Counted from the stretch's first letter, positions 21,461 to 56,226 are shown. The stretch is 64,000 nt of DNA from Omnitrophica bacterium GWA2_41_15 (GCA_919902675.1 CAKKRH010000032.1:1270-65269), one strand, 5' to 3'. Program-made: numbers and translations. Notes: generated by a model not told the origin, from the letters alone.

Positions 21461-21513
21461 ATTAATCTGTAATTTTAGTTTTTGATATTTAATTTATTAT
21501 TATACCTCCAAAC

Positions 21514-24328: not shown

Positions 24329-24339
24329 TGTAATTCATT

Positions 24340-33673: not shown

Positions 33674-33686
33674 CGAGAATATTAAA

Positions 33687-33844: not shown

Positions 33845-35203
33845 TTAAACCTTCGCGCCCTCAACCTTAAAGGTATCATTTATAAAATTGGTGGAAAACT
33901 CACCTTTAACAAAGAAAGGATTCTTCAAGACCTCCCGGTGAAAATCTATGGTAGTCTTTATCGGCTCAATAATAAATTCATCCAGGGCCCGGCGCATAAT
34001 CTGGATAGCTTCCTTTCTGTCTTTTCCCCGGACAATCAGCTTGGCCACCAGGGAATCATAATACTGGCTTATGGTGTACCCGGAATACACATGGCTGTCT
34101 ACCCTCACGCCCGGACCACCCGGAATGTTCAACATCTCTATCTTTCCCGGTGAAGGCATGAAATTGTTCTGATAATCCTCGGCATTAATGCGGCATTCTA
34201 TGGAAGAACCGTTCAGTCTGATATCATCCTGCTGAAGTTTTAACTTCTCGCCCCTGGCGATTTTGATCTGCTCTTTAACTATGTCTATCCCGGTAACCAT
34301 CTCGGTAACCGGATGCTCAACCTGAATCCTGGTATTCATTTCCATAAAATAGAAATTTTTCTTATCATCAAGCAAGAACTCAATAGTTCCGGCGCTCACA
34401 TATTTTACCTCTTTAGCCGCCCGTATCGCCGTTTCACCGAGGCGTTTACGCAATTTACTGTCCACAGCCGGCGAAGGAGATTCCTCTAAGAGCTTTTGAT
34501 GGCGCCTCTGGATTGAACAATCCCTTTCCCCTAAATGAAGAATCCGGCCGTATTTATCGCTCAGAATCTGGATCTCTATATGCCGCGGCCTCTCAATATA
34601 TTTCTCAATATACACATTGGAATTGCCGAAATTCGCCTCGGCCTCGGCCTGGGCGGTCATTAACCCTGAAGCCAAACTGATGTCGTTATGGCAGACCCGC
34701 ATACCTTTTCCGCCGCCTCCTGAGGCAGCCTTAATGATAACCGGATAGCTTATGCGCTTGGCTACTTTTATCGCTTCATCCTTGTCCTTTATGGCGGATA
34801 GGCTTCCGGGAACTATGGGTATGCCGCATTTACGCATGGTTTCGCGGGCATGCATCTTATCGCCCATAAGGCGGATATTTTCCGGGGTCGGCCCGATAAA
34901 GGTTATCCGGCAAGATTCGCAGATTTCGGCAAAATGGGGATTCTCAGACAAAAAACCGTAACCCGGATGTATGGCATCCACGTCGGTTATCTCGGCGGCT
35001 GAAATGATGGCGGGAATATTAAGATAGCTGTTGGCTGAGACTGCCGGCCCGATGCACACCGCTTCATCAGCCATGCGCACATGCAAAGAATCCCGATCGG
35101 CCTGAGAATACACGGCGACAGTGCGTATACCCAGCTCTTTACAGGCCCGGATAACACGCAAAGCAATCTCTCCGCGGTTGGCTATAAGTATTTTGGAAAA
35201 CAA
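33845..35203 (-). CDS. accC: Biotin carboxylase
   Basis: 452 aa: [20 protein letters not shown]...ATP-grasp...[14 protein letters not shown]. Confidence 0.95.
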
Positions 35204-35735: not shown

Positions 35736-35813
35736 CCCGCACCTTGATTAGTTCGTTGAGTCTTTTGAGTTTAAGAACTCAATAAACTCAAGCAACTCAA
35801 CAAACTCTATAAA
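35736..35813. repeat. Intergenic hairpin of ACTCAA words
   Basis: gttgagtcttttgagttt ... aaactcaagcaactcaac. Confidence 0.7.
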
Positions 35814-36377
35814 CTAATTAACCCGCTCCACATAGGCGGCGGTCCTGGTATCCACCTTAATTTTATCCCCGATATTGATAAATAAAGGAACTAAAATCGT
35901 GGCACCGGTTTCAACCTTTGCCGGCTTGTTCCCGCCTTTAGCCGTATCCCCTTTTATTCCGGGCTCGGTTTCCACGATTGCCAGCTCAATAAAATTAGGC
36001 ATTACAATATTTAAAACCTGATTCTTGTAAAAGAATCCTAATACCTCCAGATTATCCTTAAGAAACCTGGAATTCTCTCCCAGGACATCGAATGAGATTG
36101 CCAACTGGTCATAATTCTCCTGGTCCATAAAATGATACATCTCGCCTGAGGCATAAAGATACTGCAGTTTTCTCTGCTCCACAAAAGCTTCTTCTACCGT
36201 ATCCTGGCCCCTGAAGGTGCGCTCCAGCAAGCCTCCGGTGCGCATATTCTTTAGCCGGGTGCGCACAAAAGCCGAGCCCTTGGCCGGCTTGACATGCTCG
36301 GTCTCCGTGATCTGAAAAACCTGGCCGTCCATAAGAATAGTTACCCCAACCTTAAATTGATTTATCGAGAACGCCAC
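35814..36377 (-). CDS. efp: Elongation factor P
   Basis: 187 aa: ...[19 protein letters not shown]... Confidence 0.93.
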
Positions 36378-39941: not shown

Positions 39942-40026
39942 TTATCTCATCTCCTTTTGCCTAATCATATCACCTATGATTAGAACTGTCAAACACCTTT
40001 TTTAAACCGCAAAGGCACAAAAATGA

Positions 40027-40135
40027 TTTAAACCGCTAAAACGCAAAATGGTGCTTAATGAACCCAATTAATCAAAAAAACAAAAACTGAAAAACGAAAA
40101 AAGCACTTTTTTTTGCTTTTGAAGTTTTTCAGTTT
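40027..40135. repeat. About 105-bp A-rich repeat element, copy 1
   Basis: tttaaaccgctaaaacgcaaaatggtgcttaatgaac..attaatcaaaaaaacaaaaactgaaaaac...ttttgcttttgaagtttttcagttt is about 75-80% identical by eye to 56124-56226. It contains a hairpin aaaaactgaaaaac/gtttttcagttt. Confidence 0.75.
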
Positions 40136-40148: not shown

Positions 40149-43100
40149 TCACAAGAGATAATTTACCAAGATCTTAATCTGTTCCGCATCGAATGGCTTA
40201 CCCACTACTGGTATGGCCTTCCTTTTAACATATTCCTTTAGCTTCTCAATTTCTTCCGCATATCCCGACATGATTAATATTGGCATATCTTTTGTCTGCG
40301 CGTTCTCCTTAAGCATACCAATTACTTCATAACCACTCATCGGCATTTTTATATCCAGCATTAACAAATCAGGAATAGCAGTTTTTATTTTTTCTAATGC
40401 TTCCTTTCCATCACCGGCTTCGCTAAAATTAGAATACCCGCTTGCCTGTAAAATTTTCCTTAAAACATTCCTCACTTCTGGCTCATCATCAACAATCATA
40501 ATGGACTTCTTTAATCTTGTTTCTCTTTCGCTAACACAAAAACCGTAGACCCGCTCCAATAAATCCTTACTATTACTTGCATCGCCAGGATAGGTAGCGT
40601 ATCCATATGAAAAACCCGTCCTAAGTTGTTCATCAATTTCAAAAACAGACACTTTTATAATCATCTTCAATCGTGTCATCATGTTGGATGCCTCTTGTTT
40701 GTTAACTTGTATAAAAACAATGATCTCATTTTCACTCCCTTTAATTACAAAATCCCTGCTTCGTATAACTTTTTCTAAAGCCGTCCCTATTGAAAGGAAA
40801 ACTTTTTGTACTCTATCTTTTCCGGACTCTTTCTCAACCTCTAAATAATTATCTAACCTGATAATAAATATTGAAAATTCCTTATTTTCTTTTTTAGCTT
40901 CTCTAATTCTCTCCTCTATCGTTTCGCGCAGGAACTCTTCTTTGTTATACTTCGGCAGGGTAAAGCTAAACTTGCTGCCCTTGCCAAGGCGGCTTTCCAC
41001 CCAAATCTTACCGTGATGCAGCTCAACCAGGGCTTTAGCTATAGAAAGGCCTAAACCCGTGCCTTTTTCGCCGAATCCGGGGACGCGGTCAAACTGCTGA
41101 AACTTGCTAAATACCTTAGGAAGGTCATCCCCTGAGATGCCCACACCAGTATCAGCTACGCCGCACTCTACTTCATTTTCTTTCTCTAAAACCGAAATCT
41201 CTATTGAGCCTTCTTTAGTGAATTTAAGAGCGTTGGCGATAAGGTTGGTCAAGACCTCGATTATCTTCTCCGTGTCAGCATAAATATACAGCTGTTTTTC
41301 AGGAAGGTTGACTTTCAATTCCAGCCCAGCATCTCTTGCGCGTTTAGAAAAAGAGGAGATAAGTCCACTAATTAAACTGTTAAGGTCAGCTGAGCCTCTT
41401 TTTAGCTCCACCTTTCCCGCCTCAATCTTGGAGATATCCAAGAGGCTGTTGATAATATTTGCCAATCTATCTATATTCTTCTTTGCGGTAGTAAGAATTT
41501 TTTCCTGCTTTTCATTTACCTTGCCGGCAAGTCCGTCTAAAACTAGAGCCAGGCCTTCTTTGGTAATAGAAAGCGGGGTCCTGAGTTCATGGGAGACTAT
41601 AGAGACAAATTCGGTCTTCATTCGATTCACTTCTTTCTCTTTGGTGATATCTCTAAGAATAATAACTATACCGATAGTTTCGTTCTTTGCGTTTCTCACC
41701 GGCGCTGTATCACAGTGTAAGGATACAGGCTCTCCCTGCACAGATACCGTTAGATCCTTAAAAACTAAACAGCTAATATCTGCACACTTTTTTAATACCT
41801 CCTCTAAACCAATGGCCTCGGCCTTTTCTTTCCATATTTTAGCCGTAACCTGCTCCTCGAACCTAAAACCCAACAACTGCCTGGCCCGCGGATTTATAAC
41901 CATCACCTCACCGCATTCATCCACCATCACCACGCCCTCAACCATGCTCTCTACCATACTCTCCATCTTTGACTTTTCAGCAGTGATCACTGCCCGCAGT
42001 CTTTCAATAGCATTAGAGGCCTGATTGGCAATGGTGCAGGTAAGCTCAATATCCTCTTCTGAAAAGGCATTCTCTTTACAGCTGGAGACATTAATCATCC
42101 CGACAGTTTTACCATGCGCTGTAAAAGGAACATTAAAGAAACTATGTAATTCCTTAAATTCCCTTTTTTCTTTATGGTTTTGGCTATCGGTAGCCAAACC
42201 ACGGCCTTCTGGCCTGGAGGTTACCTCTGTAGTGCTGGGAATAAGCATGGCGCTCAGGCGTTTCTTACGGATATTCTCTCCAGTTAAGATAGAGGTAGAG
42301 TCAATCAGGCCATCTTTTACCTCATCCGTAAATTTAGCACTTTCGGAATAGACGGGCTTTAGAGTAATGTTGGCGGTATGGGTATCAAATAAAAGCGAGG
42401 CGCAGATATCATAATTGATTGTCTTGAACAATGATTCCATGATAAACTTGAGTAACGTCTGATAATCCAAGGTATAAGAAATAGCATTGGAAATCTCATA
42501 TAAAACAGATAATTCCAAAGTCCTCTCTTTTACCTTCTTCTCGAGGTCTTTAGAATATGATTCAATCTCAGCCTTTGCTTTGGTAAGTTCGGCGGTTCGT
42601 TCTTCAATCATCCCTTCTAAACTTTTAGAATATTTTTCAATTTCTGCTTTTGCCCCTGCCAAATCCTCCATCATATTCAAGGTTGCTTCCTGGGTTTGGG
42701 CTAAATCTTTGGTGCGCTCCTTAGCCTTCTTCTCTAAAGTCTTGGCAAATTCCTCTAATTCTGCCTTAGACTTCTCTAAGTTAGCAATCAGCCCATTTAT
42801 CCGGCGCATATCGTGGGCTACGCCGACAATGCCGATTATTCGTCGTTCTTCAGGAGCTTTCAGCTTTCGGCTTTCAGCTTTCGGCTCTAGATCTTCTGCT
42901 GATAGCTGAGAGCTGATGGCTGATGGCTGACTCTCATACATTACTGAACCAGAGAAACTCATCGGTATCTTCCCGCCATTTTTAGTCACATAAATCAAAT
43001 CAAAATCGCGTACCGAACCTTCCTCAACCAGTTTCCTTAGGCGTGTTCCCTTAAGGAGAAGTTCTTCCTCAAAAATATTTTCCACCGGCTGACCGATCAG

Positions 43101-43589
43101 CTCTTCTTCGGTATATCCTAATAAATCTAAAGTGGCTTTATTTGCTGTCTTAATTACGCCTTCAGGGTCAACCACAATTAAGGTATCAATCATATTGGCG
43201 ATGATAGAGTCCACGTAGCCTTTATCCAGCAATTGCGCCCTCTGTCTTTTTAAATCCTGGAGCATTTGATTAAAGGCTTTAGCTAATTGGCCAATCTCAT
43301 CAAAGCTGGTGATTTTCACCTCTGCATCAAAATTGCCCTGCCGTACGGTAGAAATTGTTGAGAGGATTGATTTTAGCGGCTTATTTAAAAGAAAGTAAAA
43401 TACCACGATAATAAGGATGCTTAAACTTAAAGTATCTATGAACGCTTCCAGAATAGGATATTGCCTAATCGCCTCAAACTTAGCAAAGATAAACATAATT
43501 ATTAACTCAAATAACGCTACCATAGAAATGAGCTTAAAGGCAATACTAAATTTTAGGCGATGTTGTCTTTTCAAGCCGTTATCCTTCAT
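40149..43589 (-). CDS. Hybrid sensor histidine kinase (2TM-HAMP-PAS-coiled coil-GAF-PAS-HisKA-HATPase-degenerate GGDEF-REC)
   Basis: 1146 aa. H-box FVSIVSHELRTPL, G-box GTGLGLSIAK and a C-terminal REC (IMIVDDEP...LMLDIKMP). Between HATPase and REC lies a GGDEF-like fold with RSRD-FVIKG-SENEI in place of RxxD-x5-GGEEF. Confidence 0.85.
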   Translation of the reverse strand: MKDNGLKRQHRLKFSIAFKLISMVALFELIIMFIFAKFEAIRQYPILEAFIDTLSLSILIIVVFYFLLNKPLKSILSTISTVRQGNFDAEVKITSFDEIGQLAKAFNQMLQDLKRQRAQLLDKGYVDSIIANMIDTLIVVDPEGVIKTANKATLDLLGYTEEELIGQPVENIFEEELLLKGTRLRKLVEEGSVRDFDLIYVTKNGGKIPMSFSGSVMYESQPSAISSQLSAEDLEPKAESRKLKAPEERRIIGIVGVAHDMRRINGLIANLEKSKAELEEFAKTLEKKAKERTKDLAQTQEATLNMMEDLAGAKAEIEKYSKSLEGMIEERTAELTKAKAEIESYSKDLEKKVKERTLELSVLYEISNAISYTLDYQTLLKFIMESLFKTINYDICASLLFDTHTANITLKPVYSESAKFTDEVKDGLIDSTSILTGENIRKKRLSAMLIPSTTEVTSRPEGRGLATDSQNHKEKREFKELHSFFNVPFTAHGKTVGMINVSSCKENAFSEEDIELTCTIANQASNAIERLRAVITAEKSKMESMVESMVEGVVMVDECGEVMVINPRARQLLGFRFEEQVTAKIWKEKAEAIGLEEVLKKCADISCLVFKDLTVSVQGEPVSLHCDTAPVRNAKNETIGIVIILRDITKEKEVNRMKTEFVSIVSHELRTPLSITKEGLALVLDGLAGKVNEKQEKILTTAKKNIDRLANIINSLLDISKIEAGKVELKRGSADLNSLISGLISSFSKRARDAGLELKVNLPEKQLYIYADTEKIIEVLTNLIANALKFTKEGSIEISVLEKENEVECGVADTGVGISGDDLPKVFSKFQQFDRVPGFGEKGTGLGLSIAKALVELHHGKIWVESRLGKGSKFSFTLPKYNKEEFLRETIEERIREAKKENKEFSIFIIRLDNYLEVEKESGKDRVQKVFLSIGTALEKVIRSRDFVIKGSENEIIVFIQVNKQEASNMMTRLKMIIKVSVFEIDEQLRTGFSYGYATYPGDASNSKDLLERVYGFCVSERETRLKKSIMIVDDEPEVRNVLRKILQASGYSNFSEAGDGKEALEKIKTAIPDLLMLDIKMPMSGYEVIGMLKENAQTKDMPILIMSGYAEEIEKLKEYVKRKAIPVVGKPFDAEQIKILVNYLL
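42192..42216. repeat. 25-nt element inside the kinase CDS, identical to one in cheW
   Basis: agccaaaccacggccttctggcctg is identical to 50477-50501. On the coding strand it gives RPEGRGLA. A flanking tggYtttggct inverted partner is present in both copies. Confidence 0.9.
42854..42931. repeat. In-frame heptamer inverted array (CAGCTTT/CGGCTTT versus GCTGATA/GCTGATG) inside the kinase CDS
   Basis: Five units lie at 42854-42888 and five complementary-type units at 42898-42931. It encodes QPSAISSQLSAEDLEPKAESRKLKAPEE. The word family is the same as the 1527-1575 intergenic hairpin. Confidence 0.8.
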
Positions 43590-43621
43590 ATTTAGTTAAT
43601 ACTGAAAAATCCTCTTTTTAT

Positions 43622-43706
43622 GATTACACCGATTGAAAATCCGATTACGCAGATTAAAGTCTCGTCGAACAAACTCTGTGTAATCATTCTTATAATCTGT
43701 GTAATC
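43622..43706. repeat. GATTACRCMGAT box array (2 forward, 2 reverse)
   Basis: gattacaccgat at 43622-33, gattacgcagat at 43643-54, ctctgtgtaatc at 43674-85 and atctgtgtaatc at 43695-706. Located between the HAMP gene stop and the kinase start. Confidence 0.85.
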
Positions 43707-43738
43707 AAGTTTCTGTCAGCTTTTTCAGCAGAAACTAT

Positions 43739-44374
43739 TTAACTTTTTTCTTTCAATTTTTGTTCCAGCTGACTAATCACTTCCTTCAGCTCCTTCATTT
43801 TAAGTTCTCTATCAACGGATAATTTATTGAATCGCTCAAGGTCAGCTGCTTTTTTCTCCAGCACTTGTTTGGCCTCGGTTATCTCTCGTGTGCGTTCTTC
43901 CACCTTTTTCTCCAGGCCTTCGTTAAGGACATTTAGCTCCTTATCCGCCTGCCTGAGTTCTTCGTTGGCTGCCTCAAGCTTTTCATTGGATGCGTTAATT
44001 TCCTTGGTTCGCGCCTGAATTTCTTGTTCTAAATCCGTACCCCAATTTTTAAGTTTTTCGGCCATCTTATTGAAATGGACAGCGATGAAACCAAACTCAT
44101 CCTTTCTTTCTTCGTTAGCTTTTACGGAGAAGTCTCTCTTTTCTACCGCGTTCATAACCTTAAGAAATTCATCCAGGGGCTTTTTTAACAACCTAAGGTA
44201 AATGATAGTAATAATCAGAATTAAAATAGAGATATCTATTATCGGCCCCAAAAAGGCGTATTTTTCTATTAAACTCCTTAGTGGGGCAAAATATTCGTAG
44301 ATAAGCATTATAAAAAGCTCTACAAGAGCAACTAAAAAGATAAGTTTCATTAAAATACTGTTACGGATTCTCAT
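43739..44374 (-). CDS. Membrane HAMP + coiled-coil protein without output domain
   Basis: 211 aa. It has 2 TM with a short loop, a HAMP (KKPLDEFLKVMNAVEKRDFS...FNKMAEKL), then coiled coil containing LEKKVEERTREI. The N-terminal module is paralogous to that of the kinase. Confidence 0.7.
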   Translation of the reverse strand: MRIRNSILMKLIFLVALVELFIMLIYEYFAPLRSLIEKYAFLGPIIDISILILIITIIYLRLLKKPLDEFLKVMNAVEKRDFSVKANEERKDEFGFIAVHFNKMAEKLKNWGTDLEQEIQARTKEINASNEKLEAANEELRQADKELNVLNEGLEKKVEERTREITEAKQVLEKKAADLERFNKLSVDRELKMKELKEVISQLEQKLKEKS

Positions 44375-44408
44375 GTTGATTTTCCTCCCGGTTGCGCTCT
44401 ATTGCATT

Positions 44409-44550
44409 CAGACTGTGTCACAATAGCCTTTTGTGTCATTGCGAGGTCGCCAAAGGCGACCGTGGCAATCTTTATTCCGACGATGTCTGAGTTAAAGATT
44501 GCTTCGCTGCGCTCGCAATGACACATGTTTTACCATTATGACACAGCCTG
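44409..44550. repeat. 142-bp compound inverted-repeat element (outer 37-nt arms, two inner hairpins)
   Basis: The arms are cagactgtgtcacaatagccttttgtgtcattgcgag (44409-44445) and ctcgcaatgacacatgttttaccattatgacacagcctg (44512-44550). The inner hairpins are gtcgcc/ggcgac and gcaatcttt/aaagattgc. Confidence 0.8.
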
Positions 44551-44592
44551 ATTGCGATATGTAATCAGCCGTAAATCCATCTTTGTATCGCG

Positions 44593-45396
44593 CTACTTGC
44601 GCTCCTGGTCCCAGCGCTCAATGAGGATATCTGAAGTCAAGATGCGCATCAGATGCATAAAGGCATAGATATAGTCCCTGAAGGCAAAACTGAGCAGCCG
44701 AACTTCTACAGTCTTGGAGGCGCTGTCTACGGCTTCCAGGGAAATATGCCCCTCTGAATATTTTATCTGCTGTAAATAGGGATACTGTTGGCCAAACGTG
44801 TCTTTAAGCCGCGTAATAATGGCTTCCAGCACCGGCCCTCCAACCACCGGCTTGAGATTAGCTAAAAGTAGTTGATTAAGAATAGTTGAAACTAAGAGAA
44901 AAAAATCCTCACGGCTGGCATAGCCGCAAAGCTGGATTAAGTAATTGATGAGATTTAAATTTACCAACCTTTTTTTTACTGAAGCCTGACCAGGCCTGCT
45001 TAAGAGCTCTTTTAAACCCTTAAGAAATTGGTCTTTGTTCGCGCCTTCAGTTAAAACATTATCTACGCCGGCATTGATTGCCGAGGCGATTATCTTAGCC
45101 GCCTTTTGAGAGGTGATTAAAATAGCGGTTGTTTGCCGCGTTGGCGCGGATGTTTTTAGGGTACGCAGCAAGGCTAAAGCACTCTCAATAGCCGGATCTA
45201 CACACAAAGACGAATCTATGCCTTGGTGCAGGCTTAAGAGCAAACAATCAAACTTTTCTTTTAACAAAGCAGCTTCTAATTTTTTTAGCTCGCCTTCTAT
45301 CACAAAATCTAAGTTTAGCTCTTTAAGCCAGTTCTCAAGGGTCTTGGCGGCAGATGGCTCTGGTTCGAAAATAATTAGCTTTTTAATCTCCTCCAT
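44593..45396 (-). CDS. Pseudo-receiver domain protein with uncharacterized C-terminal domain
   Basis: 267 aa with an N-terminal CheY-like fold pattern (KKLIIFEPEP...FDCLLLSLHQ). Ser replaces the phospho-acceptor Asp position. The C-terminal roughly 140 aa has no motif I recognise. Confidence 0.5.
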   Translation of the reverse strand: MEEIKKLIIFEPEPSAAKTLENWLKELNLDFVIEGELKKLEAALLKEKFDCLLLSLHQGIDSSLCVDPAIESALALLRTLKTSAPTRQTTAILITSQKAAKIIASAINAGVDNVLTEGANKDQFLKGLKELLSRPGQASVKKRLVNLNLINYLIQLCGYASREDFFLLVSTILNQLLLANLKPVVGGPVLEAIITRLKDTFGQQYPYLQQIKYSEGHISLEAVDSASKTVEVRLLSFAFRDYIYAFMHLMRILTSDILIERWDQERK

Positions 45397-45466
45397 TACG
45401 CGCCTCCGGTATAATCTTCAGGTATAATCAAAGGATTATACCTGATTACACAGATTAATTTCATAA

Positions 45467-45946
45467 TTAAAAGCTTATTTTCACCGTGACAATACCGGTA
45501 GCTACCGAGAATTCCACAGACCTGCCTACTGAACCGCCAATAGATTCCCCGATTAGTTTTATGCCTTCGTGTTTTAACTTCTTTTTAGCGCTTAAAACAT
45601 TTTCCTTACCGATATCTGAGTTAGAAAGGCCAAACATATTTGCCCCGCCCACCAGCTTGGCCTCTAAATCTTTTCTGTCAGCGCCAAGCGCCTGTATCTT
45701 TTCTAAGGCTGAATCTACGGCGGTGTCCACGTATTTGGCATCTGGCTGCCTGAGGGAAGCCGAAGGGTCGTGCGTTACAGACAAAGGCAACATCGCATGG
45801 ATCATTCCGCCAATTTTAAGTTTAGGCTCATATAGGGTAATCATAAGACAGGAGCCCACTGCACGGGAGTAAAGGTTACCCTCTTCTTTACTTACCACTA
45901 ATTCTCCCATTGGCACTTCAATTTCCATTATTTGCTCACAAGGCAT
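45467..45946 (-). CDS. cheD: Chemoreceptor glutamine deamidase CheD
   Basis: 159 aa: ...LYSRAVGSCLMITLYEPKLKIGGMIHAMLP... Confidence 0.85.
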   Translation of the reverse strand: MPCEQIMEIEVPMGELVVSKEEGNLYSRAVGSCLMITLYEPKLKIGGMIHAMLPLSVTHDPSASLRQPDAKYVDTAVDSALEKIQALGADRKDLEAKLVGGANMFGLSNSDIGKENVLSAKKKLKHEGIKLIGESIGGSVGRSVEFSVATGIVTVKISF

Positions 45947-46514
45947 TCAACAAGACCTTAACCTCTTCGGGCTTAAATATAAGCAGGAGATACCCTTTCA
46001 TACTCATGGCCTTGACCATTAGTTCAATTCTTACCACCAGCGCCTCAGCGCTATCCTTGGCAAAACCTGCGATGACCTCTTCTAATATCGCGCCAAACAT
46101 ACCGGAAGATAATTTAGGCATACCCTCGGTTATCTCTCCTTTAAGGCTGTTGGAGAGGACGGCTAAATAATTGCCTAAGAGGATATTCCCTACTTCTTTA
46201 AGTACCATTTCGTCAAAAGGAATTAATTTTTTGATTGTTCTTGGTTTTTTTTTCATCAGCAGATCACATAAATGAAATGAAGTTTCTTTAGGAAATAAGA
46301 AAAGGCTTGAACCTGTAACTCCTCCGGCAACGGGTAAAAAGACTCCTACTCCCAGCTCCTGAGAACCGATAAGGGGAGAAACCTTTCTGACATTGGTTAT
46401 TACGGGTTGAGAGAATACCACCCCTGTCTCCGCGCCGATGAGCTTAGACAAGGCGGCAGTGCAACGTTGACTGGCTGTTTCGTTAATCTTGTTTAATTTC
46501 TCCTCATTCGCCAT
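45936..46514 (-). CDS. cheC: CheY-P phosphatase CheC
   Basis: 192 aa with the CheC-type motif EVGNILLGNYLAVLSN. It is adjacent to cheD. Confidence 0.8.
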   Translation of the reverse strand: MANEEKLNKINETASQRCTAALSKLIGAETGVVFSQPVITNVRKVSPLIGSQELGVGVFLPVAGGVTGSSLFLFPKETSFHLCDLLMKKKPRTIKKLIPFDEMVLKEVGNILLGNYLAVLSNSLKGEITEGMPKLSSGMFGAILEEVIAGFAKDSAEALVVRIELMVKAMSMKGYLLLIFKPEEVKVLLNAL

Positions 46515-46538
46515 GATTTTATTCCTCCTTTTTAAAAT

Positions 46539-46615
46539 GATTACACAGATTTTTGAATAAGATTACACAGATACACTTTTAATCTGTGTAATCTGCTTTT
46601 ATAATCTGTGTAATC
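46539..46615. repeat. GATTACACAGAT box array (2 forward, 2 reverse), second locus
   Basis: gattacacagat at 46539-50 and 46561-72, atctgtgtaatc at 46582-93 and 46604-15. The last box overlaps the cheA stop. A single box also occurs at 45444-45455. Confidence 0.9.
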
Positions 46616-48242
46616 ATCGTATGTCTTTTTTTAACGCCAATTTCCTCTTAGAAAGTATGAGGTTAGCTGCATCTAAAATAAGCGCGACCTCGCCAGAGCC
46701 AAGAATAGTGCAGCCGGTAAAATATTTGCCCTCCTTGGCTAACCTTAACGGCTTATGCACAATCTCCTGGGTCTGGCCTAACTCGTCTACCGCCAGACCT
46801 AATCGGTCTTCATCCTTTCGGACAATGACGATAGGCTGTGAATTTTGGTCTAAGCGGGGCAGATTAAACAACTCATTTAAACGGGTGATAGGGATATCCT
46901 CGCCTTCAAAGACAATGGCCTCATAATTCAACATCCCCTTTATATCTTCTTTTTTTACATGAATTAACCTCTCCACATTGGCTAAAGAAATGGCGTATGC
47001 TTTAGGGCCTACCTTGACGAATAAGACCTTAAACACTGCCAGGGTTAAAGGTATCTCTAAGATAAATTTTGTGCCTTTTAAGGGAAGCGACTCTACTTTC
47101 ACTGAGCCGCCCAAAGATTCAATCCTTTGCTTGACGATATTCAGGCCAAAGCCTCTGCCTGAAATTTGGGTAACCTCTTTGGTAGTGCTCACTCCGGAAA
47201 AGAGCGCGTTAACCAATTCTTCCTGAGCTGGATGGCTGGAAATTAGCTTGAGCCTTGAGGCATACCTTTTTACTTCTTCCCAATCAATGCCTCTTCCATC
47301 ATCGCTAACCTCTATAACCGCAAATCCACGCGCTCTTTTAGCAGAGAGTTTTAAGGTGGCTTGAGAAGGTTTTTTCAGGCCCTCTCTTTCTTTGGGGATT
47401 TCTATGCCATGGTCAATGGCATTTCTGACTAAATGCACCAGGGGCTCAGCCAAGGCCTCCACAATTGAGCGGTCTAATTCTATGTCGCCGCCAACCATCT
47501 CTAAATTAACCTCTTTTTTCTCTTGCTTAGCTAAGTCTCTTACTAAGCGTGGAAAACGGTTAAAGACGAAATCTAAAGGCACGGTGCGCGACTGCATAAT
47601 ATTAAACTGCAGGTCAGAGACTAATCTGGTTAAGGTATCTACGAAACCGGAAAGCTCGGGGTTTTGCAAAGTTTCCTTAATCCGCTCTAATCCCAGTTTA
47701 TTAATCAACAGCTCTTCGGATAAGCGCATCAATAAATCCAGCCTTTCTACCTTAACCTCGATGCTCTTGATCTTCTCAAGAGAGGCAGGCTCTTCCAGGG
47801 ATCCCTCGGAAGCCGCGGTTTCGTCGTGCCTGCCTGCCGGCAAGGCAGGCGTCGTGCGTATTGCGTCGCACGTAGCCAGAGCCTGTAATTTTTTGACTAA
47901 ACCCGCGGTGTCCAGTTCTTCTTTATCCTTGGAAACTGCTTTTAGGCTTGCTTCTAAGGCATCAAAACATTCAAATAATAAATCGGCGCAAGCGCCAACC
48001 TTTAATTCCTTCTTTTTTGTCCTGACTAAGACATCCTCTATGGCATGGCATAGGGCAGAGGTCTTGAAATAACGCGCGATTCCGGATATGCTCTTGTAGG
48101 TATGGCAGGCGTGCAGCATAGGGCCAAACAGGATCAGATTACCCGGGGTCTTCTCTAATTTAATCAGAGAACTATTCAGGGTATTCAGGTATTGCCTTGC
48201 CTCTCTTAGGTAAGTGTCTTTGTATTTGTCTATAATCTGCAT
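46614..48242 (-). CDS. cheA: Chemotaxis histidine kinase CheA (no recognisable P2 domain)
   Basis: 542 aa. It has Hpt (ACHTYKSISG), dimerisation and HATPase domains (DHGIE...GRGFGLNIV) and a C-terminal CheW-like domain. The P1-P3 linker carries a palindromic low-complexity insert (47822-47872). Confidence 0.9.
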   Translation of the reverse strand: MQIIDKYKDTYLREARQYLNTLNSSLIKLEKTPGNLILFGPMLHACHTYKSISGIARYFKTSALCHAIEDVLVRTKKKELKVGACADLLFECFDALEASLKAVSKDKEELDTAGLVKKLQALATCDAIRTTPALPAGRHDETAASEGSLEEPASLEKIKSIEVKVERLDLLMRLSEELLINKLGLERIKETLQNPELSGFVDTLTRLVSDLQFNIMQSRTVPLDFVFNRFPRLVRDLAKQEKKEVNLEMVGGDIELDRSIVEALAEPLVHLVRNAIDHGIEIPKEREGLKKPSQATLKLSAKRARGFAVIEVSDDGRGIDWEEVKRYASRLKLISSHPAQEELVNALFSGVSTTKEVTQISGRGFGLNIVKQRIESLGGSVKVESLPLKGTKFILEIPLTLAVFKVLFVKVGPKAYAISLANVERLIHVKKEDIKGMLNYEAIVFEGEDIPITRLNELFNLPRLDQNSQPIVIVRKDEDRLGLAVDELGQTQEIVHKPLRLAKEGKYFTGCTILGSGEVALILDAANLILSKRKLALKKDIR

Positions 48243-48261
48243 TCTCTCTGCTCGATAGTCT

Positions 48262-49335
48262 CTACCTGCTCAACAGGCAGGCTTCTTCTAATATCGCCCT
48301 GGCTATCTCTTGCGCAGGAAGCACTTTATCCGCCAATCCCGCGTCAATCACGGCCTTGGGCATACCAAAGATTAACGCGGATTTATCCTGCGCGATGGTC
48401 CTGCCGCCTGCCTCTTTAATAGAACGCATACCTTCTAAGCCATCGTTGCCAATACCGCTTAAGATAATGCCGATAGAATTTTGCTGATAAATACGGCTTG
48501 CGGATTTCATCGCTATATCAATAGAGGGGCTTAAGGTATCGGGTGAAACCTCTTCTAAAGTAGTAAAATTATTCTCTCTGCTTTCTACTCTTTCTTCTCT
48601 GCTCTTTATTTTTAAATTAAAACCGCCGGGAGCAAGATATGCGGCTGGGGAGAAAATAGTTTCTCCGTCGCAAGCTACCCTGGTCTTAAGTGAGCAATTT
48701 TTGTTTAAATGCCCGGATAAACTTTCGCTAAAAAACCTGTTTGGCATATGTTGAGCTATCAAGATCGGAAGAGAAAAATCAGCAGGCAAAGAGGGCAAAA
48801 TCATTTCCAGTGTTTGCGGCCCGCCGGTAGAGGCGCCTATAACAATAATTTTATCTTCTGCTAATAACTTAGGTGAAGGATGAAACGGCTTAAGCCTAAA
48901 AGCTTTAAATCTTTTCAAATTAACCTTAGAGGCGGCTTTTACTTCTTGAGTAAGCCTTTCTTTTATCTTTTCTATATCTAAAGATAGCTCTCCTGATGGC
49001 TTAAGTACAAAACTTACTGCGCCCAGCTCCAGGCATTCTAAAGCAATACCTGCCTCTTCCTGGCTATAGGCAGAAAGTATCACTACCGGAGTGGGAAAAT
49101 CACGCATTATATGTTTTAAGGTAGTTAAGCCATCCCATCCCGGCATTGCCAAATCCAGGATTATGCAATCGGGTTCAACAGAAGGGATTTTTCTTAACGC
49201 CTCTTGGCCGCTGGAGGCTGTCCCTACTACCTTAATCTGGGGGTCTTTATTCAGGAAATCCGAGACTAAGCTGCGGATAAAGAGGGAATCATCTATGATC
49301 AGGACTTTTATGGGGAGAAGACCTGGGGTATTCAT
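48262..49335 (-). CDS. cheB: Chemotaxis methylesterase CheB
   Basis: 357 aa: REC (VLIIDDS...IILDLAMP) plus a methylesterase domain (GASTGGP...). Confidence 0.9.
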   Translation of the reverse strand: MNTPGLLPIKVLIIDDSLFIRSLVSDFLNKDPQIKVVGTASSGQEALRKIPSVEPDCIILDLAMPGWDGLTTLKHIMRDFPTPVVILSAYSQEEAGIALECLELGAVSFVLKPSGELSLDIEKIKERLTQEVKAASKVNLKRFKAFRLKPFHPSPKLLAEDKIIVIGASTGGPQTLEMILPSLPADFSLPILIAQHMPNRFFSESLSGHLNKNCSLKTRVACDGETIFSPAAYLAPGGFNLKIKSREERVESRENNFTTLEEVSPDTLSPSIDIAMKSASRIYQQNSIGIILSGIGNDGLEGMRSIKEAGGRTIAQDKSALIFGMPKAVIDAGLADKVLPAQEIARAILEEACLLSR

Positions 49336-49377
49336 ACATTTTAGCTTAAAAATTAGGAATCAATCATTTCTACTTTT

Positions 49378-49752
49378 TTACTCTCTCTTGATATACTTGT
49401 TTAGCACTTGTTCAATCTGCGCGTCATCGAAGGGTTTAACAATATAGTCCTCGACGCCTAATTCCTTACAGCGATTAATCATCGCATCATGCCCCACAGC
49501 AGTAATCATAATTATCTTGGCCTCGGGCACGGCATCCTTTATCCGCTTAAGGACATCCACTCCCTCATTTTCGCCTTCAGGCATAATGATATCTAAGAGC
49601 ACCAAATCCGGTATTGCCTTCTTAAATTGTTTAAGGGCGGTTGTGCCTGAATCCGCTTCGATTACTTGCGAGTCTGGGATAGTCTTTTCCACAATATTTT
49701 TAAGCACCATGCGAATAAATGGCGAATCGTCCACAATGAGAATCTTTTTCAT
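49378..49752 (-). CDS. cheY: Chemotaxis response regulator CheY
   Basis: 124 aa: MKKILIVDDSPFIR...VLLDIIMP...K. Confidence 0.88.
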   Translation of the reverse strand: MKKILIVDDSPFIRMVLKNIVEKTIPDSQVIEADSGTTALKQFKKAIPDLVLLDIIMPEGENEGVDVLKRIKDAVPEAKIIMITAVGHDAMINRCKELGVEDYIVKPFDDAQIEQVLNKYIKRE

Positions 49753-49804
49753 CCTTCGGCTCCTTTCATTCGCTCAGAATGAACCCTGAGCTTGTCGAAT
49801 GGGT

Positions 49805-50554
49805 TCATTTGCGCCTCCCACTTTCTTTTGCTTTTGCCGGCTTACTTTGCGTTTTTTGGCTTTGGCTATGGATGCGGCTATTTGGTTGCCCACCATCGCC
49901 CTCTGGCTTATGGCTGCGGCTATTGGAAGCCGCACCATCGCCCTCTGGCTTATCGGAGGCAAAACCACCGCCCTCTGGCTTATGAGCTAAGGTTATGCGC
50001 GCTAACTTGCTGAGATCCTCTTCAGAAAGCACCTTCTTTAAGTCCAACAGCATAATCAGGCGCTCATCCAAGGTGAGCACTCCGCTGATATAGGCGCGGT
50101 CAATTTTGGTAATCAGATGGGGCGTGGCCTTTATCCCTGTGCGGGGAATCCTTAAGACCTCAGTAACCTCATCTACCAAAACGCCGTAGAGGTTCCCCTC
50201 CTGTCCGGTAATAACGATATGCTTACTTTCCACTGGCTTTTTTACCGGCAGAAAGAAACGCTCTTTGAGGTCAATGACAATAATGATTTCGCCCCTGATA
50301 TTAGTTACCCCTTTGATGAAATTAGGCGAATCCGGTATGGGTGTAACCGCTCCGACACGGACAATCTCTCGGACTTCATTAATATCTACGCCAAAGGACT
50401 CGTCTTCTAAACTAAAGACGACTAATTGGATGAGCTCTGCCTCCGGGGTGATGGGTTTGTGGCTTTGGCTAAAGGAAGCCAAACCACGGCCTTCTGGCCT
50501 GTGCCTTTCCTGAGCGGCTTGGATATTGCTGGTATCTTTAATTTCAGTCGGCAT
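49805..50554 (-). CDS. cheW: CheW coupling protein with repeat-derived N- and C-terminal extensions
   Basis: 249 aa with core LVVFSLEDESFGVDINEVREI...PNFIKGVTNIRGEII. The N-terminal extension contains HRPEGRGLASFSQSHKP. The C-terminal tail has HKPEGGG/DKPEGDG/HKPEGDG repeats. Confidence 0.85.
   Translation of the reverse strand: MPTEIKDTSNIQAAQERHRPEGRGLASFSQSHKPITPEAELIQLVVFSLEDESFGVDINEVREIVRVGAVTPIPDSPNFIKGVTNIRGEIIIVIDLKERFFLPVKKPVESKHIVITGQEGNLYGVLVDEVTEVLRIPRTGIKATPHLITKIDRAYISGVLTLDERLIMLLDLKKVLSEEDLSKLARITLAHKPEGGGFASDKPEGDGAASNSRSHKPEGDGGQPNSRIHSQSQKTQSKPAKAKESGRRK
50477..50501. repeat. 25-nt element inside cheW, identical to the one in the kinase gene
   Basis: agccaaaccacggccttctggcctg is identical to 42192-42216. 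Confidence 0.9.
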
Positions 50555-50555: not shown

Positions 50556-53500
50556 TTATTTATCCTCCCCTTCCTCTTCCACTACCTCCTGAGCAGAAAC
50601 CTTAAACCTGCGCAAAGCGGTGCGCAATTGCTCGGCTAAGCCGGACAAGTTTTGCGCGGATGAGGTCATCTGCTGCATCGCTTGAGTCTGCTGTTGAATG
50701 GAAGTAGACATCTCGGATGAGCCTGTAGCTGCCTGCTCAGCAGTCAAAGCGATTTCCTCAATAGTCTTGGCTACCTGTTGCGCGCCTCCTGCCTGCGCGG
50801 TAGTGGCAGCGGAAACTTCCTGGGCTTTAGAAGTAATTTCCTGAGTGCCTACGCCAATCTGGCCTAAGATAGCCAGCGCCTGATTAACGATATCAATACT
50901 CTCGGAAACCTGCTGGGTTCCGGCAGTCATACCCGTAACCACCTCAGCGGTAGAATCAGTTATCGTGCTCACCATACCTTCAATTTGCACCGCGGCTTTT
51001 TTGGTCCCTTCAGCTAATTTTCTGATTTCATCAGCAACTACGGCAAAACCCCGGCCTGCCTCTCCGGCATGGGCGGCTTCAATAGCGGCGTTTAAGGCCA
51101 AAAGATTAGTCTGGTCAGCAATATCTTTGGTCGTACCGACGATTACCGCGATTTCCTTGGCGCGCTTATCTAAGTCTTTAACTGTAGTAGTATTGGCTTT
51201 AACAATATCATCTATGGTCTTCAATCTTCCGGCTGCCTGCTTGCCTGATTCCGTGCCTTTCTCTGCCAGTTTGGCTGCTTCCTGAGTAGCCTCAGCCGCT
51301 GCCTTGGAATTAGCCGCGCCTTGTTGTATAGACTTAGAAAGCTCAGCTACTACTTTGGTAGAGGTCTCTAATTTCTTAGACTGCTCCCTTGAGCCGGCAG
51401 CTATTTCTTGGGTGGTCTTGGCAACTTGGCCTAAGGCAGTATTTACCTGCCGGGAGGCATTAGATAATTGATTGGAAGAGCTAGCAACCTTGGTAGAGCT
51501 TTCCATAGCCAAGCGAATAGTTTTTCCTAAGTCATCAAAGGATTTGTTTAAGGCATCAGTCAAGGTCTTGATATCTCCTCTTGCCTCCAAGGCATATCTT
51601 TGTGAAATGTCTCCTTTGGAGAGGGCAAGGCTAAGCCGGATTACTTCCTGAACCGGTTTGGCGATAGAATCAATCAAGGTGTTCAAGGTGTCCACGATAT
51701 TTTTCCAACTGCCGCCAACGCCTTCCACTTTTGCCCGTTCGCTAAGCTTTCCTTCCACACCAGCTACCTGAGCCACTCGGGAAACTTCATTGGCTAAGCG
51801 GTTTAAATTATCCACCATGCTATTTAGTGTATCTTTTAACTGTAGAATCTCCCCTGCTGCTTCTACAGTTATCTTTTGAGTTAAGTCTCCCATAGCAATA
51901 GCTGTGCCAACCTTAGCAATGTTTCTCACCTGAGCAGTAAGGTTAGCCGCCATAGCATTGACCCTGTCAGTAAGGTCCTTCCATGTCCCGGCTACGCCCG
52001 GCACTGCTGCCTGTCCGCCGAGTTTTCCTTCCGTGCCTACTTCTTTGGCTACGCGGGTAACTTCTGCGGCAAAAGTATTTAATGAATCCACCATAGCATT
52101 GATCGTATTCTTAAGCTCTAAGATTTCACCCATTGCCTCTACGGTAATCTTCTGAGCCAGGTCCCCCTTGGCAACTGCGGTGGTTACTAAAGCAATGTTA
52201 CGCACCTGCGAGGTAAGGTTAGCCGCCATAGCATTAACCCTGTCAGTAAGGTCCTTCCATGTCCCGGCTACGCCCGGCACTGCTGCCTGTCCGCCGAGTT
52301 TTCCTTCCGTGCCTACTTCTTTGGCTACGCGGGTAACTTCTGCGGCAAAAGTATTTAGTGAATCCACCATTTTATTGATGGTATCTTTTAAGGCTAACAT
52401 CTCTCCCTTAACCTCTACAGTGATTTTTTGCGCCAGATCTCCGTTAGCAACTGCGGTAGTAACCTGAGCAATGTTACGCACCTGAGCAGTAAGATTTCCC
52501 GCCATAGCATTGACGTTATCCGTAAGGTCTTTCCATGTCCCGCCAACACCCGGCACTGCTGCCTGTCCGCCGAGTTTTCCTTCCGTGCCTACTTCCTTGG
52601 CCACGCGGGTAACTTCTGCGGCAAAAGTATTTAGTGAATCCACCATTTTATTGATGGTATCTTTTAAGGCTAACATCTCTCCCTTAACCTCTACAGTGAT
52701 TTTTTGCGCCAGATCTCCGTTAGCAACTGCGGTAGTAACCTGAGCAATGTTACGCACCTGAGCAGTAAGATTTCCCGCCATAGCATTGACGTTATCCGTA
52801 AGGTCTTTCCATGTCCCGCCAACACCCGGCACTGCTGCCTGTCCGCCGAGTTTTCCTTCCGTGCCTACTTCCTTGGCCACGCGGGTAACTTCTGCGGCAA
52901 AAGTATTTAGTGAATCCACCATTTTATTGATGGTATCTTTTAACTGTAGCACCTCTCCGGCAGCCTCAATGGTAATCTTTTGCGCCAGGTCTCCTTTGGC
53001 AACTGCGGTGGTTACTAGAGCAATGTTACGCACCTGCGAGGTAAGGTTAGCCGCCATAGCATTGACTCTATCGGTTAAATCTTTCCATAGACCGCCAACA
53101 CCCGGCACTGTTGCCTGGCCGCCTAACTTTCCATCCGTGCCTACTTCTTTGGCTACGCGGGTAACTTCTGCGCCAAAGGTGTTAAGTGAATCTACCATTT
53201 TATTAATCGTATTCTTCAACTCCAAGATTTCACCTTTCGCCTCAACCGTAATCTTCTGCGCCATATCTCCGTTAGCAACTGCGGTAGTAACCTGAGCGAT
53301 GTTACGCACCTGACTGGTTAAGTTTCCCGCCATAGCATTGACGTTATCCGTAAGGTCTTTCCATGTCCCGCCAACACCCGGCACTGCTGCCTGTCCGCCG
53401 AGTTTTCCTTCCGTGCCTACTTCCTTGGCCACGCGGGTAACTTCTGCGGCAAATAGGTTTAAACTATCCACCATCTTATTGATGGTCTCTTTTAACTGTA

Positions 53501-54524
53501 GCACCTCTCCGGCAGCCTCGATGGTAATCTTTTGCGCCAGGTCTCCCTTGGCAACTGCGGTAGTAACTAAAGCAATGTTGCGCACCTGTGCAGTAAGGTT
53601 AGCTGCCATAGCATTAACCCGGTCAGTAAGGTCCTTCCATGTCCCGGCTACGCCCGGCACTGCTGCCTGTCCGCCGAGTTTTCCTTCCGTGCCTACTTCC
53701 TTGGCCACGCGGGTAACCTCTGCGCCAAAAAGAGTAAGATTATCTACCATTTTATTGATTGTATTCTTTAGCTCCAGAATTTCACCTTTCGCCTCAACCG
53801 TAATCTTCTGCGCCAGATCTCCGTTAGCAACTGCGGTAGTAACCTGAGCGATGTTACGTACCTGACTGGTTAAGTTTGCTGCCATAGCATTAACGTTATC
53901 TGTAAGGTCCTTCCAAAGACCGGCTACTCTTTCTACCTTTGCCTGGCCGCCTAATTTTCCTTCTGTGCCTACCTCTTTGGCAATACGGGTAACTTCTGCG
54001 CCAAAAGTATTTAGTGAATCCACCATAGCATTAATGGTATTTTTAAGTTCAAGTATCTCGCCTCTTGCTTCCACGGTAATCTTCTGAGATAAATCTCCTT
54101 TGGCTACTGCAGTAGTAACCTGAGCGATATTACGCACCTGAGCGGTAAGGTTTGAAGCCATGGCATTGACGTTGTCAGTAAGATCCTTCCATGTCCCGGC
54201 CACACCCTGAACTGCTGCCTGGCCGCCGAGTTTACCTTCCGTGCCTACTTCTTTGGCCACGCGGGTAACCTCACCGCTAAAAGCTGTTAAGAGATCAACC
54301 ATACTGTTATAGGAATCCGCTAATTCGCCAAAGATATCTTCTCTTCCTGATTTTAACTTTTTAGTGAGATCGCCTTTTCTCACAGCTTCTAAGGCCTCTA
54401 ATAAATCTCTTAACTGTTTTTCTGACCCCTCGCTAAAGCCCTCTTCTCTTTCCAATGTTGCAACATCAGCCTCTGATTCGCCAAATAAAGCCTTCTTTGC
54501 CGCTTGTCTAATTGGCTTTGCCAT
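50556..54524 (-). CDS. Soluble methyl-accepting chemotaxis protein with poly-HAMP array
   Basis: 1322 aa with no hydrophobic TM segment. It has an N-terminal HAMP, ten tandem 92-aa units and a C-terminal MCP signalling domain ([24 protein letters not shown]). Confidence 0.9.
51525..54284. repeat. Ten tandem 276-bp (92-codon) units encoding paired HAMP domains
   Basis: The unit is [84 protein letters not shown]. Units 1-9 are highly similar and unit 10 is diverged. Confidence 0.9.
52327..52943. repeat. Perfect period-276 tandem duplication (2.2 units, 100% identity)
   Basis: 52327-52667 is identical to 52603-52943 base for base. The identical shadow ORFs 52428-52634 and 52704-52910 in the track confirm the 276-nt offset. 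Confidence 0.95.
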
Positions 54525-55833: not shown

Positions 55834-56123
55834 TCTATAGAGTCTTTTTATCTAACTACCGCGCACTTGACCTTTCGACTGCCTAAAGTTAGAGTAATTA
55901 CTACAATTGTCTAATTTGTATTATTTATATCACATTTTAAATATTTGTCAAGAATATTTTCCTTTGTTGTTTTTTTAAACCGCAAAAACGTAAAATAGCC
56001 GTTAGAAGTAAATGTTCCGCGGAGACGCAGAAAAAAACTTATTGAATTTCCGCGCTTCAGCGGAGAGTATTTATCTTGATTCAACGTTTCGGCGGTTGCA
56101 AAACCGTAGAGGCGTAAAAAGAA

Positions 56124-56226
56124 TTTAAACCGCAAAAACGCAAAATGGAGCTTGATGAACGCGATTAATCAAAAAAATAAAAACCGAAAAACAAGCGTTT
56201 TATTTGCTTTTAGGTTTTTCGGTATT
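56124..56226. repeat. About 105-bp A-rich repeat element, copy 2
   Basis: tttaaaccgcaaaaacgcaaaatggagcttgatgaac..attaatcaaaaaaataaaaaccgaaaaac...tttgcttttaggtttttcggt. It aligns with 40027-40135. An extra half-site aaaccgcaaaaacgtaaaat occurs at about 55978. Confidence 0.75.

Follow-up and report, generated by a model that had tools for sequence, protein, structure and literature searches.

A 25-nt sequence shared by a sensor kinase gene and cheW of an Omnitrophica bacterium is probably the core of a dispersed, selfish 42-nt palindromic repeat

The DNA dealt with here is a stretch of 64 kb from Omnitrophica bacterium GWA2_41_15 (CAKKRH010000032.1:1270-65269; referred to as the window), in which a short repeat is found inside two genes on the minus strand. 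The first gene (40149-43589) codes for a hybrid sensor kinase (1146 amino acids; HAMP-PAS-GAF-PAS-HisKA-HATPase-GGDEF-REC) and the second (49805-50554) for CheW (249 amino acids) as part of a che operon (ParA-like, MCP, CheW, CheY, CheB, CheA and others). An earlier note on this DNA had reported that the exact 25-mer AGCCAAACCACGGCCTTCTGGCCTG occurs in both genes, and this is correct: the sequence is identical at 42192-42216 and 50477-50501. It has no further match in the window even if three mismatches are allowed, and it was not found in any of 100 dinucleotide-preserving shuffles, so that none is expected by chance. The similarity between the two genes is longer than the 25-mer and extends over 46 nt (42171-42216 versus 50456-50501) with 89% identity. 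As outlined below, the 25-mer is the core of a repeat unit of 42 nt, equivalent to 14 codons.

Exactly five copies of the 42-nt unit, all on the minus strand, are found in the window by a search with an nhmmer profile. Copy K (42174-42215; AGGCCAGAAGGCCGTGGTTTGGCTACCGATAGCCAAAACCAT; 51 bits) is complete and encodes RPEGRGLATDSQNH, which are residues 459-472 of the kinase and which lie inside the Pfam GAF match (residues 375-528), where the earlier note had placed them. In an AlphaFold2 model of this GAF domain, which is of low confidence (predicted local distance difference test, pLDDT, of 52.8), copy K is predicted to be a coil between strands with pLDDT below 50, which weakly supports a loop position; the model of CheW (pLDDT 42.8) was discarded. 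Copy W1 (50459-50500; AGGCCAGAAGGCCGTGGTTTGGCTTCCTTTAGCCAAAGCCAC; 55 bits) is likewise complete and encodes RPEGRGLASFSQSH, residues 19-32 in the N-terminal extension of CheW. The other three copies are in the C-terminal tail of CheW, where three degenerate copies had been noted before and where repeat search and nhmmer both find them (49867-49911, 49908-49953, and 49951-49984). They form a nested cluster, two inner copies interrupting an outer one in its loop. The 5′ part of the outer copy up to the loop (49952-49981; 30 nt; AAGCCAGAGGGCGGTGGTTTTGCCTCCGAT) encodes KPEGGGFASD and matches model positions 1-34 with 25.8 bits. It is followed by a complete inner copy (49910-49951; AAGCCAGAGGGCGATGGTGCGGCTTCCAATAGCCGCAGCCAT, encoding KPEGDGAASNSRSH; 53.9 bits) of the "GC-stem" subfamily, whose stem TGCGGCT/AGCCGCA is compensatory relative to TTTGGCT/AGCCAAA of copies K and W1, then by a second, degenerate inner copy (49868-49909; AAGCCAGAGGGCGATGGTGGGCAACCAAATAGCCGCATCCAT, encoding KPEGDGGQPNSRIH; 24.7 bits) and finally by the 3′ remainder of the outer copy (49856-49867; AGCCAAAGCCAA, encoding SQSQ), which fits the consensus of the 3′ arm, AGCCAAAGCCAY. 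The kinase and CheW peptides and the KPEG peptides of the tail read as the earlier note had given them. Remainders of the type ...SQSH after nested copies are also present at loci L037 and L083 of other genomes, and the nested architecture of the CheW tail recurs in L037, L012, L015/L061, L029, L049, and L057. At least six contigs, mostly from Hainich groundwater assemblies, encode an identical CheW that carries every one of these copies, and the three contigs shown come from three samples; an assembly artefact is therefore ruled out.

The consensus of the unit is ARGCCAGARGGC-SRT-GGTKBGGCT-loop(6)-AGCCVMA-N-CCAY, which in coding sense reads ARG CCA GAR GGC SRT GGT KBG GCT NCC NNT AGC CVM ANC CAY and yields the peptide [KR]PEG[RDGH]G[LASW]A[ST]xS[QRP]SH. 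It contains two hairpins, a first one of 3-4 bp (GCC/GGCC-AGAR-GGC/GGCC) and a second one with an 11-bp stem, a one-base bulge and a six-base loop; the tggYtttggct partner which the earlier note had seen in front of each 25-mer is the 5′ arm of this second stem. The termini of the unit (ARGCCAGA... and ...AGCCAY) are not complementary to each other, the hairpin being internal. Folded as single-stranded DNA the unit has a predicted free energy of −10 to −13 kcal/mol (z = −3 to −6), and copies K and W1 come to about −13 kcal/mol (z = −3.9 to −6.1).

How widely the unit occurs was determined by scanning one genome per GTDB species (596 Gb) with the degenerate 24-nt pattern ARGCCAGARGGCSRTGGTKBGGCT, for which by our own arithmetic about 0.4 matches are expected by chance. 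The scan gave 76 copies beyond the window at 69 loci in 40 species-level metagenome-assembled genomes (MAGs), or 79 matches with the window included. It should be noted that these copies were collected by an exact degenerate pattern, are in part non-independent (orthologs and tandem copies) and are a sample rather than a whole-genome census. Of the 40 assemblies, 33 are labelled Omnitrophota or Omnitrophica and the other seven "bacterium" or "uncultured Planctomycetia"; where the differently labelled assemblies encode Asd, this protein groups with the Omnitrophota sequences. Subfamilies of the unit are genome-specific: all nine copies of MAG MHGN01 are of the GC-stem type versus 20 of 76 overall. 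Neither the viral contigs of IMG/VR (pattern scan) nor phage and plasmid collections (blastn with the unit) contained a match. Searches at the protein level were uninformative on this point. The consensus peptide retrieved only six short proteins from a set of 5.8 billion proteins, the word index being too restrictive, and phmmer with the CheW tail gave eight matches with E ≤ 1e-3 among 1.84 billion representatives, a unit of 14 residues being too short to score.

Most of the sampled copies are located in open reading frames (ORFs). When a frame was counted as long if open for at least 100 codons (a crude way of ORF calling), 66 of the 79 pattern matches were in long frames and 13 were not. 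Five of the six possible frames are used: 51 copies (77%) are read in the KPEG frame, designated s0, four in s1, five in a0, two in a1, and four in a2, and none in s2, which contains a stop codon. In the larger set of nhmmer matches (n = 139), 116 are in ORFs, 98 of them in sense and 18 in antisense orientation, and 23 are outside. The s0 hosts include Asd and glutamate synthase (GltB), in which the unit is positioned between domains (in Asd between its two), an AddB-like PD-(D/E)XK nuclease, ribonucleotide reductase (RNR), a ResIII helicase, UvrA, a radical-SAM enzyme and a family-9 glycosyltransferase. Topoisomerase I (TopA) is a host in s1; enolase and a class-I tRNA synthetase, both with the unit between domains, in a1; an AAA_14/DUF4143 ATPase, a DHOD-B-like subunit, a tRNA U5-methyltransferase and a DDE transposase fragment in a2; and a PilZ membrane protein and the N-terminus of a LysM-M23 peptidase in a0. 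The idea of the earlier note that a small element is spreading in frame through signalling genes is thus supported with respect to the spreading but not with respect to the signalling genes, since there are more than 40 unrelated hosts in about 40 Omnitrophota MAGs. As a separate observation, the copy in the transposase fragment lies within a DDE_Tnp_1 ORF (L006, 781-1308), which indicates that the unit inserts into other mobile elements too.

The frames differ in the character of the encoded peptide. The s0 translation is the most hydrophilic (Kyte-Doolittle −1.6) and the a0 translation, MAAAIGSRTIALWL, the most hydrophobic (+1.3), and the latter has hydrophobic, membrane-like or signal-like surroundings. 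If insertion occurred at the AY|AAR motifs of the window genes without any other preference, 31% of the copies would be expected in s0 versus the 77% observed (p = 8e-15; with about 35 of 48 independent sites, p ~2e-9), so that a peptide filter or an orientation bias is required besides target preference. Lengths follow the reading frame as well: of the intact copies in ORFs, 51 measure 42 nt and a single one 45 nt, whereas outside ORFs three copies of 42 nt, three of 43 nt and one of 44 nt were counted, lengths not divisible by three thus being found only outside ORFs. The intergenic copies form head-to-tail arrays, one of them beside a stretch read as a tRNA gene. In another (L024, 449-576), three tandem copies with a period of 43 nt fill the spacer between rplP and rpmC (genes read from the flanking translations), an array which, being inside a ribosomal-protein operon, must be transcribed. 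At seven intergenic loci the unit is co-oriented with both neighbours and at three it is opposite, a weak bias. Adjacent copies have the same orientation in 40 of 40 pairs, and the loop of a copy commonly harbours a further, nested one, which follows GAT|A (L037, L083 and the CheW tail of the window).

The comparison with orthologs, for which the earlier note had asked, indicates that copies K and W1 of the window are lineage-specific insertions. Of the 19 closest CheW orthologs (P0001-P0017, P0020, P0021; 68-89% identical), 15 lack the N-terminal copy. Their empty site reads QER-HK-PITPE (RK in P0013, HR in P0021), whereas the window reads QERH[RPEGRGLASFSQSH]KPITPE; P0001 and P0003 carry the 14 extra residues as well and P0004 has three tandem copies at this site. 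The DNA has a clean indel of 42 nt here, at GAAAGG CAC|AAACC. The copies in the C-terminal tail vary between orthologs in position and number, and P0005 has an independent insertion, ACTTTACATCGC[42 nt]AAAGAGGCA, which again is an exact 42-nt indel. Likewise, the nearest relatives of the kinase, P0124 (77% identical) and P0121, are without the unit, and the empty site (L153: ...ACTCCC|AAAGAAAAA...) compared with the window (...ACCTCC[42 nt]AAAGAAAAA...) reveals a clean insertion of 42 nt without target duplication. At sites with a His codon the boundary is ambiguous by 3-4 nt. The junction is 5′-Y|AAA-3′ at all four resolved sites, the one in Asd included; all 76 copies are directly preceded by Y, and in 53 of them this Y follows an A, so that the left flank (N-A-Y) mirrors the unit's own 3′ end (C-A-Y).

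The kinase gene contains in addition a second repeat-derived in-frame insert (42854-42931, minus strand, residues ~222-247), which encodes QPSAISSQLSAEDLEPKAESRKLKA. It is composed of the heptamers CAGCCAT CAGCCAT CAGCTCT CAGCTAT CAGC, a spacer, and GCCGAAA GCTGAAA GCCGAAA GCTGAAA, and can form an imperfect hairpin. An Rfam scan of 40-51 kb gave weak miRNA-like matches at this hairpin only and no family for the 42-nt unit. The heptamer motif CAGCTNTCAGC recurs at 1531-1585 of the window (6 matches versus 0.11 expected) and a related run, GCGGATAGCGG, at 10392-10416, which suggests that heptamer runs are a second small repeat family of this genome.

Whether the unit is conserved as nucleic acid or as peptide, a test proposed in the earlier note, can be decided from the alignment of the 76 copies and from Asd, and the constraint is at the DNA level. 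In the alignment, 88.5% of the stem cells are paired, compared with 23-45% when the partners are slid against each other. Both sides have changed in 58 stem cells versus 24 in shuffles, and none of 500 shuffles reached 58, although these counts overstate the number of independent events because the subfamilies are related lineages. The covariation is not circular, since the 3′ arm is outside the search pattern. Four compensatory stem forms are found, TT/AA, GC/GC, TC/GA, and TG/CA, which translate into GLAS..SQS, GAAS..SRS, GSAS..SRS, and GWAS..SPS, respectively; they make sense as base pairing, not as peptide. Among the non-Watson-Crick cells there are 20 with G-U and nine with A-C, too weak a difference to tell which of the strands forms the hairpin. 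Seven Asd orthologs share 96% identity in the unit, with 97% identity at synonymous third positions versus 42-57% in the flanking codons. In ten Asd genes of simple architecture its pairwise identity is 94.9% versus 76-82% in adjacent 36-nt segments, and the variation there is concentrated in the loop codons.

A metagenome search for Asd, with a profile stripped of the unit, returned 80 loci, 79 of them scorable, and by peptide pattern 13 of these are filled and 66 not. Among the 66, L096 has a degenerate copy, and L120 and L146 have only a 27-nt piece, AAYCCCGTTAGAAAYTGGTT... (NPxRNWFLL), which in filled genes is always adjacent to the unit (L073, L078, L089, L090, L001 and others). The 27-nt piece diverges as fast as the gene itself, which the 42-nt unit does not; this contrast is the strongest hint of a non-neutral process acting on the unit, be it constraint, gene conversion or replacement. 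Three further observations were made at this site. In L106/L107 (1860-1915) the 27-nt piece is lengthened to a hairpin, CCCGTTAGAAAC...GTTTCTAGCGGG; L120 and L146 have a similarly extended peptide without the 42-nt unit; and in L096 (~1880-1920) the central part of the copy is replaced (CACAGGCCACCCCGCCATAGGCGGGGCAATAGCCAAAGCCAT, RPPRHRRGNSQSH), which is decay or rearrangement in place.

From these findings we consider it likely that the 25-mer forms the core of a palindromic 42-nt repeat which is dispersed in genomes of the uncultured phylum Omnitrophota and is selfish, non-autonomous and REP/RPE-like, and that the peptide which kinase and CheW have in common is a by-product. By analogy, the near-invariant hairpin, the Y|AAA junctions, the nesting in loops and the lack of target duplications point to a hairpin-dependent mobilisation system. 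Copies would spread by a strand-specific, hairpin-recognising mechanism of the single-strand "peel-and-paste" kind, with the enzyme supplied in trans, perhaps a HUH/Y1 transposase of the IS200/IS605/RAYT type. Selection would then purge those copies that disrupt proteins. The survivors in ORFs would be multiples of three in length, would be located in loops, termini or interdomain linkers, and would mostly be read in the single frame whose product, [KR]PEGxG.AS.S.SH, is hydrophilic and rich in Gly, Ser and Pro. Kinase and CheW would have been hit independently by one subfamily, and hence would share the peptide.

Several points weigh against this interpretation. The indels could in principle be precise deletions. 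In the Asd tree, filled genes are interleaved with empty ones, and pairs that are 84-89% identical differ in state; together with the joint travel of unit and 27-nt piece this means that a simple one-off insertion does not explain the site. The Asd pattern could be due to repeated joint gain, to repeated precise loss or to short-patch recombination; a recombination tract was not detected there, the near flanks being no more similar between filled genes (0.80) than between filled and empty ones (0.78). No mobilising enzyme, RAYT included, was seen by tblastn with TnpA of IS200 and IS608 in about 800 kb, a small and biased sample, so that this negative carries little weight, and the DNA flanked by arrays in L068 is non-coding only, with no transposase. 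Finally, the near-invariance of the unit across species exceeds what is predicted for pure "junk"; it may reflect function, gene conversion or repeated replacement.

The last point leads to the rival that survives best. In its general form, the unit would be more than tolerated junk, namely a long-lived, nearly invariant, lineage-wide cis-element in essential genes, read by the cell perhaps through a dedicated hairpin-binding or HUH protein, as partners of the REPIN-RAYT type, or as a pause signal in mRNA or during translation; we regard this as unlikely. If true, there would be an unrecognised marking at the DNA or RNA level throughout the coding sequence of Omnitrophota. Formulated as an explanation of the data, the unit is or became a functional nucleic-acid element, e.g., an mRNA-stabilising or pausing hairpin or a lineage-specific protein binding site, and nucleotide-level purifying selection keeps it near-invariant, which is compatible with a mobile origin; this too appears rather improbable. 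The stem covariation would be explained, as would the identity of about 95% within Asd as compared with 76-82% in the adjacent DNA, the co-inserted 27-nt piece included. The predominance of sense orientation in ORFs (98 versus 18) and between genes (7 versus 3 loci), the slight excess of G-U over A-C (20 versus 9), and the array within a ribosomal-protein operon point in the same direction, and REPs are thought to work as transcribed RNA elements (PMC3733652). However, at every site examined close orthologs do well without the unit, its position follows the tolerance of the protein (loops, linkers, termini) rather than a shared place along the transcript, the antisense copies are genuine, and Rfam has no matching family. 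Moreover, the G-U/A-C and intergenic orientation signals are weak and are confounded by coding and by gene-strand bias.

It is very improbable that the unit is not mobile at all and that its distribution results only from local replication slippage, gene conversion and recombination among minisatellite-like loci that were already present. Such processes would account for the tandem arrays with periods of 42-45 nt and for the one, two or three copies per site in CheW and Asd; the homogeneity within genomes suggests conversion, and short-patch recombination could yield the interleaved filled and empty Asd genes. Slippage, however, can neither create the same 42-nt block at dozens of unrelated places nor put complete copies into the loops of other copies, and the new sites have the Y|AAA junction in common. 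The flanks in Asd are without a recombination tract (0.80 versus 0.78).

We give hardly any credence to the other idea of the earlier note, namely that the peptide RPEGRGLA..SQ.HK is a short linear motif under selection at the protein level, such as a docking site between kinase and CheW. Both hosts in the window are indeed signalling proteins, the peptide is in exposed or unconserved regions, and the hydrophilic frame is strongly preferred. But the note had named in advance what would speak against such a motif, and this is what was found: many copies, in five frames, in intergenic DNA and in Asd, UvrA, RNR, GltB, TopA, enolase, aminoacyl-tRNA synthetase (aaRS) and other genes; the docking site is thereby refuted. 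Furthermore, the nearest CheW and kinase orthologs are without the peptide, the residue swaps (L/Q, A/R, W/P, S/R) follow base pairing and not chemistry, and synonymous sites are conserved. Programmed translational bypassing is known from T4 gene 60 and from the mitochondrial "byps"; that the ribosome skips the hairpin in this way, so that the peptide is not made, is the least credible explanation, since, even though many copies are located between matching codons (CAY ... CAY) and start with a hairpin, the lengths in ORFs are strictly multiples of three (intergenic copies have 43-44 nt), the stop-containing frame is never used, the kinase copy has no matching take-off codon, and the frame used goes with the hydropathy of the peptide and with its context, all of which implies that the unit is translated.

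If the unit is a selfish repeat, as we think likely, identical peptides in unrelated proteins of Omnitrophota are repeat-derived and should not be taken as shared domains or motifs or as evidence of interaction. A selfish unit of 14 codons would then be accepted in loops and linkers of essential enzymes (Asd, UvrA, TopA, enolase, RNR, aaRS), with a choice of frame that tracks the local protein environment, and would thus represent, like the RPEs of Rickettsia, a natural experiment on how insertions are tolerated. The mobilisation system could be identified in complete genomes. Since presence, absence and copy number differ between genes that are 84-93% identical, the unit might also be of use as a strain marker in groundwater metagenomes.

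The window contains several other repeats. The MCP gene next to cheW (50556-54524, minus strand, 1322 amino acids) has nine tandem repeats of 276 nt (92 amino acids) at 51700-54210, which are 68-77% identical; its counterpart on other contigs has precomputed HAMP/HAMP_2 matches. A direct repeat of 92 nt (40004-40095 and 56101-56192; 86% identical), which includes the 23-nt motif TTTAAACCGCAAAAACGCAAAAT, flanks a block of 16 kb with the kinase gene and the che operon. A second direct repeat of 171 nt (21298-21468 and 33682-33852; 95% identical) has its copies 12.4 kb apart. Short tandem arrays are found at 24194-24337, 32012-32087, and 35758-35824, with the 7-mer TTGGTTA/TTGGAAA and with the 9-mer AACTCAATA, the latter at two places 3.7 kb apart.

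With respect to known systems, the unit is of the REP/RPE kind and is not a member of any named family. A CRISPR repeat is ruled out, there being no spacers and the 42-nt units standing head-to-tail inside ORFs, and so is a miniature inverted-repeat transposable element (MITE): the unit is a small non-autonomous element as MITEs are, but it is without terminal inverted repeats, and the kinase site is without target duplication. The "peel and paste" transposition of IS200/IS605 elements involves hairpin ends, is strand-specific, inserts 3′ of a short sequence without target duplication and allows precise excision. The hairpin of the unit, its clean 42-nt indels, the Y|AAA junctions and the left flank mirroring the 3′ end resemble this, which is a resemblance only; the unit lacks a transposase gene and is much shorter than any insertion sequence. 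Small dispersed repeats of cyanobacteria (Elhai et al., 2008) are cited in PMC2884548 and PMC3116915. They are reportedly about 20 nt long, suspected to be mobile, and tandem as well as nested; they belong to another phylum and have another sequence, so that the comparison is a lead only.

Single-strand transposition of the IS200/IS605 type is outlined by Bertels and Rainey (2011; PMC3116915) in connection with the REPIN-RAYT systems, in which non-autonomous hairpins are believed to depend for their movement on a single-copy HUH/Y1 transposase acting in trans. REPINs form genome-specific families, are inverted doublets of REPs and insert into or beside existing copies (PMC3116915). Although the unit is also a non-autonomous hairpin with genome-specific subfamilies and with insertion into and next to its own copies, it is not a REPIN, adjacent copies being head-to-tail in 40 of 40 cases with no inverted doublet. 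REPs in general are palindromes of 20-40 bp, often transcribed, of high copy number and mostly extragenic; intragenic REPs tagged with GTAG or CGTC encode 20-30 residues, many of them in genes of replication and repair (UvrABC, RecBCD), and the species with such REPs include Opitutus terrae, a PVC bacterium (Di Nocera et al., 2013; PMC3733652). The unit resembles them in being a short imperfect palindrome with many dispersed copies (79 pattern matches; 69 loci plus the window) and in having UvrA, the AddB-like nuclease, TopA and RNR among its hosts. In contrast to REPs, it is mostly intragenic in our sample (66 of 79 in long frames) and has no conserved tag: GTAG is found in 6, CTAC in 5, CGTC in 1, and GACG in 0 of 76 copies, at inconsistent positions and created by loop variation.

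Similar in principle are the Rickettsia palindromic elements (RPEs), which, as far as they are summarised in PMC10969869 (Ogata et al., 2000, 2002), are dispersed palindromes of ~100-150 bp, confined to Rickettsia, that reside in frame in unrelated, often housekeeping genes as well as between genes, encode a family-specific peptide compatible with the folding of the host protein and are regarded as selfish DNA. The unit shares with RPEs that it is an in-frame palindrome in many unrelated ORFs with a conserved peptide; measured by these descriptions it is set apart by its length of 42 nt, its occurrence in Omnitrophota, its use of five frames, its head-to-tail arrays and its nesting in its own loop. 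We found no paper on this unit or on repeats of Omnitrophota. Thus, the principle is known, and what is apparently unreported is a mostly intragenic hairpin of 14 codons which is read in different frames depending on context and which, also within essential enzymes, is nearly invariant across some 40 species-level MAGs.

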